Both the position numbers and the translations under genes were made by a program. Positions 462-26,713 of a DNA stretch of 64,000 nucleotides are shown here, piece after piece. The notes under the pieces were generated by a model. That model searched no databases and was not told where the DNA came from. It worked only from the letters and a program-made list of their open reading frames with translations. Source of the stretch: Candidatus Berkelbacteria bacterium (GTDB taxonomy: Bacteria; Patescibacteriota; UBA1384; XYA2-FULL-43-10; 1-14-0-10-43-13); the NCBI GenBank assembly GCA_037143235.1, contig JBAWZC010000002.1:47186-111185 (forward strand). The letters run 5' to 3'. Numbering within the stretch: position 1 is the stretch's first letter; each line of letters opens with the position of its first letter.

Positions 462-1019
462 TTATTGACAAGTCGCAGTCTTCCAAAGAGGAAGATTATC
501 AAGCGGAACACTGTTCGGCTGTCCAGCATAGTAACACTTACCATTTGGCGAATTTCCCCCAGAGCCAGTCTCCAGAACTGTAAACAATAGATATGTAGTA
601 TAAAAGGTAGAAGACATCGGTTTATATATATATTTAAGCTTCCAGTCGTTAGATGTTGCGTTTTTATCTCTTTGGTCGACTGGAACGGGGCTTAAGTATT
701 TAGACAAAGAATCGTACAATGTGTGGTCTGTACCATTAGAACCCAGAGTTTTTTCTCCCTGAATATACTGATATTCACCAACGCCAGTGCCATAAAAATC
801 TCCTGCCGAAATAGTATCTAATTTGGGATAAGTCCCGTTTGCCTGTTTGTACATCTCTAACGCTGTGGAGATCTGATCGATATCAGCCTTGCGAGTATTA
901 TCTCGCACCTTTGCCTGTGCACCCGAAGCACTGTATACCACAATGCCGGCCAAGATACCGATGATGGCAATCACGATCATTAGTTCGATAAGCGTAAAAG
1001 CCCGTTTGTATAAATTCAT
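462..1019 (-). CDS. type IV pilin / pseudopilin family protein
   Basis: N-terminus MNLYKRA|FTLIELMIVIAIIGILAGIV is a class III signal peptide with Glu at +5. Size 185 aa. Confidence 0.75.
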   Translation of the reverse strand: MNLYKRAFTLIELMIVIAIIGILAGIVVYSASGAQAKVRDNTRKADIDQISTALEMYKQANGTYPKLDTISAGDFYGTGVGEYQYIQGEKTLGSNGTDHTLYDSLSKYLSPVPVDQRDKNATSNDWKLKYIYKPMSSTFYTTYLLFTVLETGSGGNSPNGKCYYAGQPNSVPLDNLPLWKTATCQ

Positions 1020-1094
1020 AACCCTCCCCGATAATAATTACTAATATTATATCACAATCAGTTGGTATAAATACAACAAACCGAAACTTTGGCT

Positions 1095-1180
1095 ACGAGC
1101 CCACGTAGATCAAGCTTTAGCTTGCTAGGCGGCACACGGTGAGCCGTAATCGACAATCCGTAGATCAAGCTTCAGCTTGT
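1095..1180. repeat. REP-like palindromic repeats (family A) flanking the RAYT gene
   Basis: Motifs gtagatcaagctttagcttgc, ggcggcacacggtgagccg and gtagatcaagcttcagcttg. Imperfect palindromes caagcNNNgcttg. Confidence 0.6.
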
Positions 1181-1184
1181 TTGC

Positions 1185-1730
1185 CTAAAAATCATCAGAA
1201 AACGCTTTAAAATCAACTACCGGATACTTTTCAAAACTATCGTTCATATATTCTTTACCCTTTTTCCTGACCCACTCGTCGTAACTGGAAAATTCATAGC
1301 TAAATTCCTTTGCAATCCCATGCTTGATTGGGTTTTGATGAATATAATTCAAATGTTTGAAAAAGTCTTCTTCGTCACGAATCACATGGTCGTAATAATT
1401 CCACCATATTTTACGATCAATTACAAAATCAGCTTTGTTGATCGACCGCGAGCTCGCGCCGTTTAACTCGGCAATAAACTTTTTAAGTGTCGATGCGTCT
1501 TTGACCTTTAACAATACATGGTAGTGATTGTGTAATATTGCATAAGCCAGTAGAGAATAATCGAACTTCTTGGTTTTTTCTTTGATAATATTCAGAAGCA
1601 AAGATTTATATTTGTCTGGCTGCAAAAACCACTGCGCATCGACGCATCTACTGGTTATGAAATAAATCGAATTATCATGGATGATGTGCTTAGGACGATT
1701 GGTAAAAGTTGGTTTATATTTCGGCTGCAT
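1185..1730 (-). CDS. rayT: REP-associated tyrosine transposase (IS200/IS605 Y1 transposase family, RAYT)
   Basis: 181 aa. The HuH motif AILHNHYHVLL plus a downstream catalytic Tyr region (WWNYYDHVIRDEEDF) are typical of TnpA_IS200/RAYT. REP palindromes flank it on both sides. Confidence 0.75.
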   Translation of the reverse strand: MQPKYKPTFTNRPKHIIHDNSIYFITSRCVDAQWFLQPDKYKSLLLNIIKEKTKKFDYSLLAYAILHNHYHVLLKVKDASTLKKFIAELNGASSRSINKADFVIDRKIWWNYYDHVIRDEEDFFKHLNYIHQNPIKHGIAKEFSYEFSSYDEWVRKKGKEYMNDSFEKYPVVDFKAFSDDF

Positions 1731-1749
1731 GGATTAATTTTATCACAAA

Positions 1750-1910
1750 CAAACTAAAGTTTGAGCTACATTTTCCCCGCAGCTCAAGCTTTAGCGTGCT
1801 GGGCGGCACACGGTGAACCGTGGTCTACCAGAGCGTACCGCACGCTTTAGCGTGTTTACAACAGCCTGAAGGCTGGGCTACGATCCGTATCTCACGCTTT
1901 AGCGTGCAAT
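1750..1910. repeat. cluster of REP-like palindromes (family A)
   Basis: agctcaagctttagcgtgctgggcggcacacggtgaaccg, cacgctttagcgtgt and cacgctttagcgtgc. The same units recur at 1095-1180, 12181-12270 and 26540-26640. Confidence 0.6.
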
Positions 1911-2665
1911 TAGAACATCGTATATCCCAAATACAAACCAACAATATAATTTCCCACAAGCAAAGAGATGAAGATAGCCAGCACGAGGAATGGCGCGAAG
2001 GGCACAGAGTCCTGCATCGACTTTCTCTTTAGACCCATCATAATCAGCCCGATAACGCTACCGAGCACAAAAGCCATTAACAATCCCAGCAAGATAACGC
2101 CAGATCCAAGCAAAAAACCCATAATGATGCCGATTTTGATATCACCAGATCCCATCCACTTGCCCTTTGATACCGTCACGATCGCTCCGAGAAATCCGCC
2201 GCCGATCAGACCACCTAGCAACATCTGCCAAACGTCAAAGCCGCCGGCCAAAAAACCAAACACTGAGAGTCCAAGAGCGATCCAAATAAATATTTCTGGT
2301 ACCTCCTCAGTCTTGATATCATGAATAACAGCCACCATCAAGATGGAAAATATGGCTGCATAGTAAAAAGTTGCAACATTTAATCCGAAAAAGTAATACA
2401 GGAGTACAAATACGGCGCCTGTGGATAACTCAACGACAGGATACTGCCACGAAATCGGTTTATTACAATATCTACACCTCGTTTTCAGAATAAAAAAAGA
2501 TAATACTGGTATCAAGTCGTACCACACCAGCTTCGTCTTGCAGTTTGGGCACTCTGAACGGCCAGTCAAGACCGACGCCAGATCATCAGTTCGCAAGACC
2601 AGAACATTTATAAAAGACCCGATAATTAGACCAAAAAGTGCAAATAGGATTAGATTTAATGTCAT
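1910..2665 (-). CDS. pilD: prepilin peptidase (A24 family)
   Basis: 251 aa. N-terminal CPNC...CRYC zinc motif, polytopic membrane profile and a GSGDIKIG motif (GGGDVKL-like). Confidence 0.8.
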   Translation of the reverse strand: MTLNLILFALFGLIIGSFINVLVLRTDDLASVLTGRSECPNCKTKLVWYDLIPVLSFFILKTRCRYCNKPISWQYPVVELSTGAVFVLLYYFFGLNVATFYYAAIFSILMVAVIHDIKTEEVPEIFIWIALGLSVFGFLAGGFDVWQMLLGGLIGGGFLGAIVTVSKGKWMGSGDIKIGIIMGFLLGSGVILLGLLMAFVLGSVIGLIMMGLKRKSMQDSVPFAPFLVLAIFISLLVGNYIVGLYLGYTMF

Positions 2666-10992: not shown

Positions 10993-12168
10993 CTAGTTAG
11001 TATTTCCCACTTCCCCGCTACTAAGTCCTGAAATATTTCTAAATCCTGGCGGCTGCAAGCTATCAAGCTTCGTGTCGTACAAGATTTGGATGTTGTTTTT
11101 GACAGGAAAATCGAAAGAATTCGCTATATAGAATCCAGTCAATTTATTATTATTATAGATTTTAATCGTCCCACCAGCGCCATAGGCACTACTCTTGATC
11201 GCCATGATTGGCGCTTTTATCTCACAACCAGCCTCTATAGTCACATCACCGTAGACAATAAAACCGAGCGCAGCTGTTGACGAAGTCGGTAAAATTTTTG
11301 AGCCAGTCCTGAACCTCATATTACCATTCACAATGATTATACCCTGACCAGAATAATTTTTTTCAATATTTTTAAGATTAGGAGCAATTGACGACGAATT
11401 TATCACAACATCGCCATCCACTGTCCAAACCTTTCCCTCTGGATATTTGAAAGTCTCATCAGCAGAGCTAGGGAGTGAAATTGTTTTTTTCTGCAATTCC
11501 CACGGACCAGTAGAGATCGCTGCAAGATTCGTAAGATCTATATCAGCCCCTTCTCCTTTTAGAGTATTAATCTTAGCCACATTTGCATCGTCATCCTTCC
11601 CGTTCCAATACGCCATTGATTTTGAGTCAATGTTATAACTGCCCATGCCCCAAGTTTCGCCATTGCTGCCGTTAGGAGTAATACTGTTTCTCGACTGCGC
11701 CAAAGCTTTGCCCCAATAAGTGAAATTACTATAATCAGTCGAGTAAGTATCCCCGATCACATTGATACCGCCGAGAAAAAGTGCCGGCAACTCATACATC
11801 ACAGTCCCACCGACCGTGGTGCGACTGGTCATCAGTCGTGTTGAACTACTAATGTTCCCGCCTGTCCCATTAGATCCCGTGCCAATGATAAAACAAACAG
11901 GTGAGGCATTGATCAAAATTCCACAATCGTCATCGGTCAATCTTGTAGTATCAAATCCATAACTTGAGTTCGGTTCACCATTGAAAATGGCATAGTTCCC
12001 CGTCATCCCGCCATAATATGTATTTCCCCCACTCACCACCGTTGTCTGCCCGACCATCATATCGGGCAAGACCGACTCAGCGAAAACTTGAAAAGGAAAA
12101 ACAAAAACAAACGCGACAAGGCCAATCGCCGTGAAAGAAACTAAGATTTTAGAATACATTTTTCGCAT
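10993..12168 (-). CDS. secreted protein of unknown function (candidate pilus-associated/adhesin)
   Basis: 391 aa with a signal peptide (ILVSFTAIGLVAFVFVFPFQVFA), Gly/Ser/Thr/Asn-rich composition and no recognisable catalytic motifs. Confidence 0.5.
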   Translation of the reverse strand: MRKMYSKILVSFTAIGLVAFVFVFPFQVFAESVLPDMMVGQTTVVSGGNTYYGGMTGNYAIFNGEPNSSYGFDTTRLTDDDCGILINASPVCFIIGTGSNGTGGNISSSTRLMTSRTTVGGTVMYELPALFLGGINVIGDTYSTDYSNFTYWGKALAQSRNSITPNGSNGETWGMGSYNIDSKSMAYWNGKDDDANVAKINTLKGEGADIDLTNLAAISTGPWELQKKTISLPSSADETFKYPEGKVWTVDGDVVINSSSIAPNLKNIEKNYSGQGIIIVNGNMRFRTGSKILPTSSTAALGFIVYGDVTIEAGCEIKAPIMAIKSSAYGAGGTIKIYNNNKLTGFYIANSFDFPVKNNIQILYDTKLDSLQPPGFRNISGLSSGEVGNTN

Positions 12169-12180
12169 AAAATTGTTTAA

Positions 12181-12270
12181 TACTTACAAGCTGAAGCTTG
12201 ATCTACTTAATTCCCGTAGCCCACGCTTTAGAGTGTTGCTCCACAAGCTGAAGCTTGATCTACGGGGCGA
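12181..12270. repeat. REP-like palindromes (family A)
   Basis: caagctgaagcttgatctac, cacgctttagagtg and a second caagctgaagcttgatctacgg. Same family as the RAYT-flanking REPs. Confidence 0.55.
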
Positions 12271-12315
12271 TTTTGTCATTGCGAGCCATCGGGTTTTCCG
12301 AGGCGCGGCAATCTA

Positions 12316-14064
12316 TCATTCCACCCTACACTGATACGACACGGTCGCCTTGTGAGTAGTGGCGTTCTGGGGAATATCGGAAAAAGTGACCTGACTACTT
12401 AATGCGGGGAAAGTTGCAGCCGCGCCAAATTCAGAACCGTTTACACCCCTACAAATATGCGCATTCGCTCCCTTTGTTACCAAATATTCGTCCGTCAAGG
12501 TATCTAGCGTCCCCGTCATATTTGAGATCTCAATCTTCACTATTATTACATCACCCATCTGTAAAGAATAAGGATTAAACGGAGTTGTCGCTGCAGGAAC
12601 ACCGTTTCGACTCACTGGCTCAAGTGTTTTCTTGATCGAAAGCCCCGCTGGCTTGCCATTGATGACGATAATACCGCCACCACCAGGAGCATCATATTCT
12701 CTTGTGAAAGCCGAACTACCCCCATTAGCTGTAATATTTGCCGCAGCAGTAGGGACTGTATTTTTCCCTAAAACATCGTTATCTGTGCCAGCAATAGTCT
12801 TAGGATTGCCAACTTGACTTGACAACTCTTGACGAATAACATTGCTAATTGTGACAGAGCCAGCCCCCGCATTCGCAGGAGAATCATCAACTACGCCGGC
12901 GCCAGCCAACACAGCGCCACTGGTTAGAGTTCCAGTAAGATTAATGCTAATTGTTCCTCCTGCTCCACCGCCACCAGATGATTGTGAGTCTCCACAACTC
13001 CCACCATTTCCAGCAGCTCCGTCTGCAGAAATAAACGAATTAGCCGAAACACTTAATCTATTGGCACTAAGAAATATCTTCCCGCCGCCAGCACCACCAT
13101 AAGCGGAGCCAATACAATCCCAACCAGGAGCATAGCTTGCGCTACCACCACCAGATCCAAAATCAACCGGAGGAGAAACCAAATCATATGTGCCCCCGCC
13201 GACAGCTTTCATATAATCGCTGACCTTGTAAGGATAATCATCTTTATATGTAGTAGATCCACCTTTTCCACCATGGCCACCACCAGAAGCGAACATAGCA
13301 TTTGGATTAAAATTATATCCCGGAACAACCACCGGAGGTTGACCTCCTCCCAAACCATAGCCATCAGGATGTGGTTGAGCTCCTTCTTGGGGTACTTGCT
13401 TGTCACCTCCTGGATACCCCTTGCCGTCAACATCAATCCTACTACTTCCGTATATAGCAATAGTACCACTTACCACAAAATCAACTTTTTTCCAGCGACC
13501 TGTGCCAGTCGTTTGACTGATTGATTTCGCATATACGTTGCCGCTGCCACCAGTAGCCTCCATGTCGGACCGATTTATCGCACTATGTGTTAAAATTGCG
13601 CCATTTTTCAATTCCAAACTATCGAAATGTCTTTGAGTATCACAGGAAGAATCTTGAGTATCGGTATAATCATCGACTTCATCTGGATGATTGTAACATT
13701 CAGTAATTGCACCAGTGACATTATGTTTGACCTTTACTGCATCAGCATAAACTATCGCTTTACCCTCAGGAGCATCCACGCCGTCGATAACAATATTTTT
13801 CCTCTCACAATCAGCAGGAATACCACCCATGTCGTCGTGGCCAGTGACATATTTAATAGTGCATGTTTTCCCATCTCCACTGTAAACGACTTGCGCCAAT
13901 GTCTTCTTCGTCCCCTGACTAACCAAGACTAGAGAGAAAGAAACAAGCAAGATCGCAAGAGCGCCAAAAGAATAAAGACGAATCTTGTGCTGACGAGCAA
14001 AGAACTGTTTGATCGATACTTTAGCCATAGAACCCTCCGAATATATATCAAGTTTATTATACAA
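12316..14064 (-). CDS. glycine-rich membrane-anchored surface protein
   Basis: 582 aa. N-terminal TM anchor and a long Gly-rich repetitive core (GGGHGGKGG, GSGGGSASY, SGGGGAGGT), likely beta-helix-like. Confidence 0.55.
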   Translation of the reverse strand: MYNKLDIYSEGSMAKVSIKQFFARQHKIRLYSFGALAILLVSFSLVLVSQGTKKTLAQVVYSGDGKTCTIKYVTGHDDMGGIPADCERKNIVIDGVDAPEGKAIVYADAVKVKHNVTGAITECYNHPDEVDDYTDTQDSSCDTQRHFDSLELKNGAILTHSAINRSDMEATGGSGNVYAKSISQTTGTGRWKKVDFVVSGTIAIYGSSRIDVDGKGYPGGDKQVPQEGAQPHPDGYGLGGGQPPVVVPGYNFNPNAMFASGGGHGGKGGSTTYKDDYPYKVSDYMKAVGGGTYDLVSPPVDFGSGGGSASYAPGWDCIGSAYGGAGGGKIFLSANRLSVSANSFISADGAAGNGGSCGDSQSSGGGGAGGTISINLTGTLTSGAVLAGAGVVDDSPANAGAGSVTISNVIRQELSSQVGNPKTIAGTDNDVLGKNTVPTAAANITANGGSSAFTREYDAPGGGGIIVINGKPAGLSIKKTLEPVSRNGVPAATTPFNPYSLQMGDVIIVKIEISNMTGTLDTLTDEYLVTKGANAHICRGVNGSEFGAAATFPALSSQVTFSDIPQNATTHKATVSYQCRVE

Positions 14065-26474: not shown

Positions 26475-26539
26475 TCTCAAATATTCAATGGCTCAGGGAT
26501 ATCTACCTGTGAGCCATTGAGCTTACTCCGTAGTAAGTG

Positions 26540-26640
26540 ATCACTACCATATTCTTCTCTTTCGTCGTAGCCCAGACTTTAGTCTGTTTGCATTAGCAAC
26601 AAGCTGAAGCTTGGGCTACGGTGAACAGTTACACTCCGCA
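26540..26640. repeat. REP-like palindromes (family A)
   Basis: tcgtcgtagcccagactttagtctg and caagctgaagcttgggctacggtgaac. Confidence 0.5.
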
Positions 26641-26713
26641 CTCTTGCATTTTTACCCTCTTTGCTCTACAATCACATCAATTCTCCAGGATGGACCACGG
26701 CTCAAGATGAGCA

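Follow-up and report, generated by a model that had tools for sequence, protein, structure and literature searches.

A stretch of 64,000 nucleotides from the Candidatus Berkelbacteria contig JBAWZC010000002.1, here called the window, very probably contains at positions 1077-1906 a module in which an intact gene for a REP-associated tyrosine transposase (RAYT, or TnpAREP) is bracketed by arrays of repetitive extragenic palindromes (REPs), presumably its cognate ones. By every testable criterion the system is a member of the REP/RAYT class. The mechanism is of a known kind, the host lineage one in which it is undescribed; the REP is minimal and the array has two stem classes. REP/RAYT systems have been characterized mostly in Proteobacteria and to some extent in Cyanobacteria, and are viewed as domesticated, vertically inherited "replicators within genomes". 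Candidate Phyla Radiation (CPR) genomes are streamlined, roughly 1 Mb in size and of the episymbiont type. A preliminary description, made from the letters of the window, had taken the genome to be a CPR-like one, and this is borne out by the RAYT, which is 100% identical to a Candidatus Berkelbacteria protein annotated as "MAG: transposase" (MAG, metagenome-assembled genome), and by PilD from the window, likewise identical to a Berkelbacteria protein. The same description called the occurrence notable because such systems are mostly proteobacterial. This stands only in part: a literature search found no paper linking RAYT or REP with Patescibacteria, but RAYT relatives are widespread outside Proteobacteria (PMC6006769, PMC5581495) and also appear among the matches listed in a profile scan of genome contigs.

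On its profile matches, motifs and predicted fold, the product of the 181-residue open reading frame (ORF) is a class-2 Y1 HUH enzyme (TnpAREP/RAYT), as the preliminary description had proposed from the HNHYH motif and the Y1 architecture. It scores 40.9 bits against the Pfam family Y1_Tnp (PF01797; cutoff 23) and 91.7 bits against the NCBIfam equivalog model NF047646 (REP_Tyr_transpos, "REP-associated tyrosine transposase"; cutoff 80). The HuH pair is H69-Y-H71, and the predicted catalytic tyrosine is Tyr129 in NYIHQNP (Y129-IHQ-N133-P134), which carries the class-2 signature Y-x3-NP as defined in PMC6006769. Residues Y23, F24, H69, H71, Y129 and N133 are unchanged throughout 25 aligned homologues. 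Among all sequences in the Protein Data Bank (PDB) the closest is E. coli TnpAREP (4ER8, E = 5e-6), with whose HMH and YIYINP motifs the HuH and tyrosine motifs align. The AlphaFold model (pLDDT 88.6) also has 4ER8_A as its top PDB fold match, with TM scores of 0.71/0.77 over 175 columns, and is predicted to include the C-terminal extension past the IS200 core that marks the TnpAREP fold; the IS608 and ISDra2 transposases reach a TM score of only about 0.5. About 100 cluster representatives are 57-70% identical to the protein; nearly all are 180-182 residues long, and those with names are labelled Berkelbacteria or Patescibacteria.

The likeness to the E. coli enzyme (YafM) extends from the HUH and Y1 core and the Y-x3-NP motif to the bracketing of the gene by REPs whose 5' GTAG head is unpaired. 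Of the positions that contact GTAG in E. coli (PMC6006769), several are kept in the sequence alignment, W94, H101 and R104 as the same residues and E100 as D. The two proteins are, however, only 21% identical, the window enzyme has NHYH instead of EHMH, and Q95 is replaced by W. By its motifs (NHYH, WW and YIHQNP) and its length of 181 residues, the enzyme appears nearest to subclasses 2.8 and 2.6 of Quentin et al. 2018 (PMC6006769). With subclass 2.8 it shares NHYH, the W-aromatic motif, a proline-containing N-terminus, GT[AG]G heads and relatives in unrelated phyla, and with subclass 2.6 (group 5 of Bertels), whose members have about 179 residues, its length and the tyrosine motif YIH[QN]NP; unlike either, it mixes the motifs of both. 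The REPs of subclass 2.8 are long and canonical and the structures of subclass 2.6 are atypical, whereas those of the window are short with a canonical GTAG tag (PMC6006769).

Both flanks of the gene are built from a single 20-nt unit, GTAG-NN-CA(NNN)-TTYA-(NNN)TG, in which a GTAG head and a 2-nt spacer precede a 5-bp stem closed by a 4-nt TTYA loop. The unpaired head, 2 nt 5' of the stem, is a conserved feature of the units, and GTAG is intact in all perfect ones. When at most two deviations were allowed, 13 units were found in the window, all of them intergenic, against 0.5 expected and a maximum of 2 in shuffled sequences; for CAMGCTTYAGCKTG, with no more than one mismatch tolerated, 0.09 matches were expected in the window and 9 were counted. 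The preliminary description had reported flanking palindromes of one family. Their positions and their common family were correct: caagctttagcttg lies at 1111-1124, cacgctttagcgtg at 1841-1854 and 1893-1906, and ggcggcacacggtga[a/g]ccg at 1128-1146 and 1802-1820. The third of these motifs is not a separate one, being the same unit on the other strand, and the GTAG head had been overlooked. Thus ggcggcacacggtgaaccg is the REP unit in opposite-strand reading (1809-1828, minus), and the 'aacaaac...gctac' motifs at 1077-1096, 1750-1769 and 1862-1881 are REP units on the other strand.

The conservation of the REPs lies in structure, that is in shape and head, and not in stem sequence. This was established on 67 sites chosen by the pattern GTAG..CA...TTYA...TG alone, with no complementarity required. 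At 61 of them the three free stem positions are fully complementary, with 10 different triplets in use, whereas shuffling of the 3' halves gave on average 12 and at most 23 complementary sites. The minimum-energy DNA fold of each unit is the predicted hairpin. As single-stranded DNA, the triplet at 12187-12263 has z = -3.3, and the doublet at 26560-26625 folds as one long hairpin with z = -4.4, which no shuffled sequence equalled. The two halves of this doublet carry unlike stems (one of each of the two stem classes, A and B), and the long hairpin pairs chiefly via the GTAG-NN-CA heads. If TnpAREP recognizes its single strand in folded form, shape and head are predicted to be conserved and the stem sequence is not (PMC3479197, PMC8266576), this last step being an inferred one.

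The units of both flanks alternate in orientation. The left array, from the RAYT stop to the pilin gene (1077-1179), has four units, two perfect and two decayed; the right array, from the RAYT start to the pilD stop (1750-1906), has six. The flanks are direct repeats of each other (1101-1154 and 1775-1828, 54 nt at 83%, with a 38-nt core at 92%), as expected if the gene sits inside a tandem A/B array. Six RAYT loci were compared: the window and five further orthologues, 64-70% identical to the window RAYT (L083/L084, L085, L001, L173 and L185). All five of the latter have 3-11 units of the window geometry, on both sides of the RAYT. The unit adjoining the ATG is sense-oriented at 6/6 loci, and an antisense unit follows 0-14 nt past the stop codon at 5/6. 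Orientation alternates across the loci, the gaps being mostly 5-11 nt and the period about 28 nt, and the linkers are not obviously conserved. The alternation and the sense/antisense bracket place the gene in the spacer between tail-to-tail units of such an array. With the RAYT placed on the plus strand, the third stem position is C or G in 29 of 32 sense units (CACGC, CAGCC, CACCC, CAGAC, CACGA) and A in 24 of 26 antisense units (CAAGC, CAAAC). The REP-RAYT-REP arrangement that had been proposed for the window and the inverted pairs with regular spacing, like those of bacterial interspersed mosaic elements (BIMEs), for which a check had been suggested, are thus both present; the arrangement recurs at the five orthologous loci, and the pairs have gaps of 5-11 nt and two stem classes.

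Two scans looked for related loci. Genome contigs were scanned with a profile of the RAYT alignment, which gave, among the matches listed, mostly distant RAYTs and one close orthologue, L001; metagenomes were scanned with GTAGNNCAMGCTTYAGCKTG, and of the matches listed only multi-unit loci were used, the single matches being, in so large a collection, probably mostly due to chance. The record of L001 (CAYSSM010000027.1) is titled uncultured Candidatus Saccharibacteria bacterium; its RAYT is 64% identical and its REP arrays are like those of the Berkelbacteria loci. The same REP geometry also brackets RAYTs that are 26-36% identical to that of the window, at 13 loci (14 of the 80 listed when L001 is counted), on a background of 0.04 units per kb. 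According to their records, the hosts of these 13 loci belong to Verrucomicrobiota, Acidobacteriota, Kiritimatiellales, KSB1, Opitutaceae and Deferribacteres. Stems vary among the distant-RAYT loci (CCGCC, CCGGC, CGGCC, CACGC), and geometry and loop are constant across phyla. Three metagenome loci show the same geometry with distant RAYTs as well; GTAG, 2 nt, a 5-bp stem and a TTYA loop are found around RAYTs of 26-36% identity at L118 and L201. Around two RAYTs of 45-47% identity from Buchananbacteria or Patescibacteria (L002, L003), no perfect GTAG-N2/5-bp/TTYA units occur in 10-12 kb, in a search confined to this REP type. Phylum alone therefore does not account for the type of REP, and these two RAYTs may use another type.

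These data also bear on whether the repeats are connected with the ORF at all. Chance palindromes, intrinsic terminators, a CRISPR-like array or an array of structured RNA could resemble them, since the units are short, the stems weak and the spacing of about 28 nt superficially array-like, and one terminator-like call lies over 1761-1787. The units are, however, 26-fold enriched over shuffles, and most of them have no T-tract after them. Gaps of 5-11 nt are too short for CRISPR spacers, the orientation alternates, and there are no cas genes nearby. When 900-2100 was searched against Rfam at E <= 1, no known RNA family was recognized, the single hit being a mir-15 match due to chance (E = 0.37). 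The unit is also found around the RAYT at all five orthologous loci and around distant RAYTs of other phyla. An origin unrelated to the ORF is therefore exceedingly improbable and is regarded as refuted by the enrichment, the stem covariation, the array layout and the cross-phylum association with RAYTs.

Among known REPs, those of E. coli offer a parallel in array design: in the E. coli BIMEs two REP classes, Y and Z, alternate in inverted orientation with short linkers, as do the two classes of the window family. The E. coli REPs have a bulged stem of about 12 bp, in contrast to the perfect 5-bp stem, 4-nt loop and 2-nt spacer of the 20-nt unit; far fewer dispersed copies are seen here, and the host is a CPR bacterium. 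The unit agrees with the REP descriptor of Quentin et al. 2018 (PMC6006769) in having GTAG or GTGG 0-2 nt 5' of the hairpin (here 2 nt). Di Nocera et al. 2013 (PMC3733652) describe for the GTAG-1 and GTAG-2 families an unpaired dinucleotide after GTAG, 5-bp stems in Thauera sp. MZ1T, complementary stem changes between sub-families, and head-head dimers, tail-tail dimers and groups, all as in the window. These families are proteobacterial, with other stems and loops and with conserved 3-bp motifs on the far side. The REP doublets forming hairpins (REPINs) of Pseudomonas fluorescens (Bertels and Rainey; PMC3337134) resemble the window system in their inverted doublets, foldable into a long hairpin, and in the RAYT flanked by them, which is single-copy there and present once in the 64 kb here. 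They differ from it in that the halves of the window doublet have different stems, of class A and class B, and in the apparently low copy number here.

REP units also occur away from the gene. Five of the 13 units in the window lie in two other intergenic regions, at 12.2 and 26.6 kb, 10-25 kb from the module, with the same A/B inverted pairing as the RAYT flanks; the units at 12187, 12244 and 1160 are identical 20-mers. The locus L081, which continues the same genome past the window start, adds four units in two more intergenic regions, a triplet at 11879-11953 and a singleton at 13433. The expectation that the family is not unique to the locus is therefore upheld by two further sites in the window and two just outside it, in modest numbers. 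About 20 nt upstream of the doublet at 26.6 kb lies a palindrome, GTAGTAAGTGATCACTAC (GTAG ... CTAC, 26528-26547), which may be a decayed or variant REP unit. The features of the window are collected in Table 1.

Table 1. Features of the REP-RAYT module, its surroundings and the dispersed REP units (window coordinates), and loci elsewhere with the same REP geometry
Feature	Position	Strand	Basis
RAYT / TnpAREP gene, 181 aa, intact	1185..1730	-	Pfam, NCBIfam, fold and motif evidence
Decayed REP unit GTAG CC AAAGT TTCG GTTTG, outer left edge of module	1077..1096	-	direct-repeat family D3; read from sequence
Perfect REP unit GTAG AT CAAGC TTTA GCTTG	1105..1124	+	unit scan
Decayed REP unit GTCG AT TACGG CTCA CCGTG, direct-repeat counterpart of 1809-1828	1135..1154	-	direct repeat; read from sequence
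Perfect REP unit GTAG AT CAAGC TTCA GCTTG, antisense to RAYT, 5 nt past its stop	1160..1179	+	unit scan
Extended -10-like box (TGATAAAAT), between upstream REP and ATG, end 6 nt before start codon	1737..1745	-	read from sequence
Perfect REP unit GTAG CT CAAAC TTTA GTTTG, RAYT-sense, directly upstream of promoter/ATG	1750..1769	-	unit scan
Degenerate REP unit GCAG CT CAAGC TTTA GCGTG, mutated head, one stem mismatch	1779..1798	+	unit scan
Perfect REP unit GTAG AC CACGG TTCA CCGTG	1809..1828	-	unit scan
Head-mutated REP unit GTAC CG CACGC TTTA GCGTG	1835..1854	+	unit scan
Perfect REP unit GTAG CC CAGCC TTCA GGCTG	1862..1881	-	unit scan
Head-mutated REP unit GTAT CT CACGC TTTA GCGTG, end 3 nt short of pilD stop codon	1887..1906	+	unit scan
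REP triplet in intergenic 12169-12315	12187-12206, 12216-12235 (one stem mismatch), 12244-12263	-, +, -	unit scan
Tail-to-tail REP doublet (REPIN-like) in intergenic 26475-26713	26567-26586, 26600-26619	+, -	unit scan
Pilin-like gene, downstream of module (context only)	462..1019	-	N_methyl motif and weak T2SSG match
Prepilin peptidase PilD, upstream of module (context only)	1910..2665	-	A24_N_bact (PF06750) and Peptidase_A24 (PF01478)
Distant-RAYT loci with REP geometry: L021, L024, L033, L034, L038, L046, L047, L048, L052, L060, L061, L063, L069			

The module lies between a pilin gene and pilD, as originally described, within a co-oriented type IV pilus operon whose other members are PilC, one more pilin gene and two ATPase genes of the T2SSE type. 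In two distant syntenic relatives (P0114 and P0110/L206) pilD and the next pilin gene are 24 and 75 bp apart, and no RAYT lies between them; the order in P0114 is PilC, pilin genes, PilD, pilin genes, tRNA-synt_1b, RNase H. L206, the one empty-site relative with DNA to scan, has no REP units. The orthologous RAYTs, in turn, stand in other contexts: the gene tables of L083/L084 and L085 and the repeat scan of L001 give no pilus neighbours, and L173 and L185 are too short to read. The empty junction in the relatives and the differing contexts of the orthologues support insertion, also proposed earlier, and by this comparison of gene orders the REP-RAYT module looks like an insertion into the pilD-pilin junction.

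Movement of this kind could be expected of an autonomous insertion sequence (IS) of the IS200/IS605 type, in which the ORF would be a TnpA(IS200) that mobilizes the gene encoding it, and the IS would end on the left and on the right in the hairpins. The Pfam domain and the HUH/Y1 fold are common to both kinds of enzyme, and the presence of gene and flanks in differing contexts, together with their absence from the junction in the relatives, implies that the module once moved as a unit. Yet the ORF fails the IS200 model NF033573 (23.4 bits against a cutoff of 55) while it passes the RAYT model, and its tyrosine motif is the class-2 Y-x3-NP, with the invariant Asn at Y+4, and not the Y-x3-Q of IS200 (PMC6006769). 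There is one copy of the gene in the 64 kb, no tnpB accompanies it, and the flanks, instead of being unique ends, consist of alternating arrays whose multi-copy unit is also found without the gene. An autonomous IS is accordingly an unlikely identity for the module.

The mode of action of the REP-RAYT module can be sketched by analogy with E. coli TnpAREP (PMC3479197, PMC8266576). The enzyme would bind the hairpin that a REP forms in single-stranded DNA, such as the lagging-strand template, and would recognize it by its unpaired GTAG head and by stem shape, not by stem sequence. Single-stranded DNA would then be cut and rejoined via Tyr129, with the metal site formed by His69 and His71, and this activity could seed or maintain REP copies elsewhere in the genome.

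A TGnTATAAT-like box is found at the same place, 6-7 nt before the RAYT start, in five of the six loci (the window, L085, L001, L173 and L185). Its position suggests that the RAYT mRNA is leaderless, with a putative promoter abutting the upstream REP. A scan with consensus promoters and terminators showed no enrichment over shuffles, and the box at 1737-1745 was not called by it. A similar ATTATATCACAA motif (direct repeat D7) occurs upstream of the pilin gene, at 1046-1053.

Several observations weigh against an intact module with cognate REPs. The mechanism of the RAYT is inferred by homology only. A single hairpin has a DNA folding energy of just -2 to -4 kcal/mol, which is weak, and the 5-bp stem fails the RNAMotif descriptor of PMC6006769, which asks for a basal stem of 7-20 paired nt with a loop of 2-5 nt and would therefore miss the window unit. 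Part of the window array is probably inert, since the head is mutated in three of the six units upstream (GCAG, GTAC, GTAT) and decay has affected two of the four downstream. The dispersed units form a small population (4 sites with 9 units altogether in the roughly 73 kb of genome scanned), and around L083, L085 and L001 no units were found in about 4-6 kb on either side beyond the arrays; ongoing dissemination is thus not demonstrated. The PilD proteins of the empty-site relatives are only 58% identical to that of the window, loss of the module there is formally possible, and the polarity of the change is unproven.

The mutated heads, the decayed units and the small number of dispersed copies would also suit a decaying relic, in which the module is an inactive leftover of a past invasion and the hairpins serve only the host, for instance by attenuating transcription or protecting mRNA 3' ends in the pilus operon, or serve nothing. 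The REPs separate genes that run in one direction, a setting in which those of E. coli act on mRNA (PMC3733652), and this agrees with it too. Against decay, the ORF is intact with every catalytic residue kept, and the nearly uniform length of the roughly 100 homologues argues for purifying selection. The three identical 20-mers argue for recent copying, and the promoter-like box is retained at five of six loci. A mere relic is for these reasons improbable, and an intact REP-RAYT module is the preferred reading.

A bolder proposal, speculative and rather doubtful at present, is that the compact REP(+)/extended -10/leaderless RAYT/REP(-) unit is itself mobile, and that the fixed REP geometry represents an ancient cross-phylum code of protein-hairpin recognition instead of species-specific REPs. 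No evidence for class-2 RAYT genes mobilizing themselves has been found (PMC6006769). If the proposal were true, the arrival at the pilD-pilin junction and the differing contexts of the orthologues would be evidence of such self-mobilization, and a RAYT lineage with GTAG-N2/5-bp/TTYA REPs would span Patescibacteria, Verrucomicrobiota, Acidobacteriota, Kiritimatiellales, KSB1 and Deferribacteres.

The occurrence of an intact system in the window means that even very reduced genomes retain REP/RAYT. Its REP, with 20 nt and a 5-bp stem, is the smallest substrate in this analysis and should be handy for dissecting how a Y1 HUH enzyme reads a hairpin and GTAG, and the 10 natural stem variants and two orientation-linked classes provide ready material for studies of specificity. 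The alternating 28-nt arrays can mislead assembly as well as repeat and CRISPR callers in CPR MAGs. The type IV pilus is a key apparatus of the CPR lifestyle; the module interrupts its operon, and the REP hairpins could influence the transcription of the latter.

Two minor observations concern other arrays and other transposases. At L150 (metagenome contig Ga0116159_1027224), positions 2144-2470 contain 13 head-to-tail copies of CAAGCT[A/G]AAGCTTGAACTAC with a period of 25-26 nt; the contig has a GC content of 55%, and there is no RAYT within the 3.3 kb covered. PMC3733652 describes head-to-tail REP arrays as rare. L205 (Logan SRR28423913), the closest PilD relative (73%), was considered as an empty site and rejected: its contig is 1.7 kb long, and the other flank of pilD there is taken by a different Y1 transposase. 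This transposase (within 1-800, directly upstream of pilD) is unrelated, has 210 residues and the motifs PNHVH and YIELNP, is like subclass 2.1, and is bracketed by inverted GGGGACGGTTCT ... AGAACCGTCCCC repeats, not by GTAG REPs.

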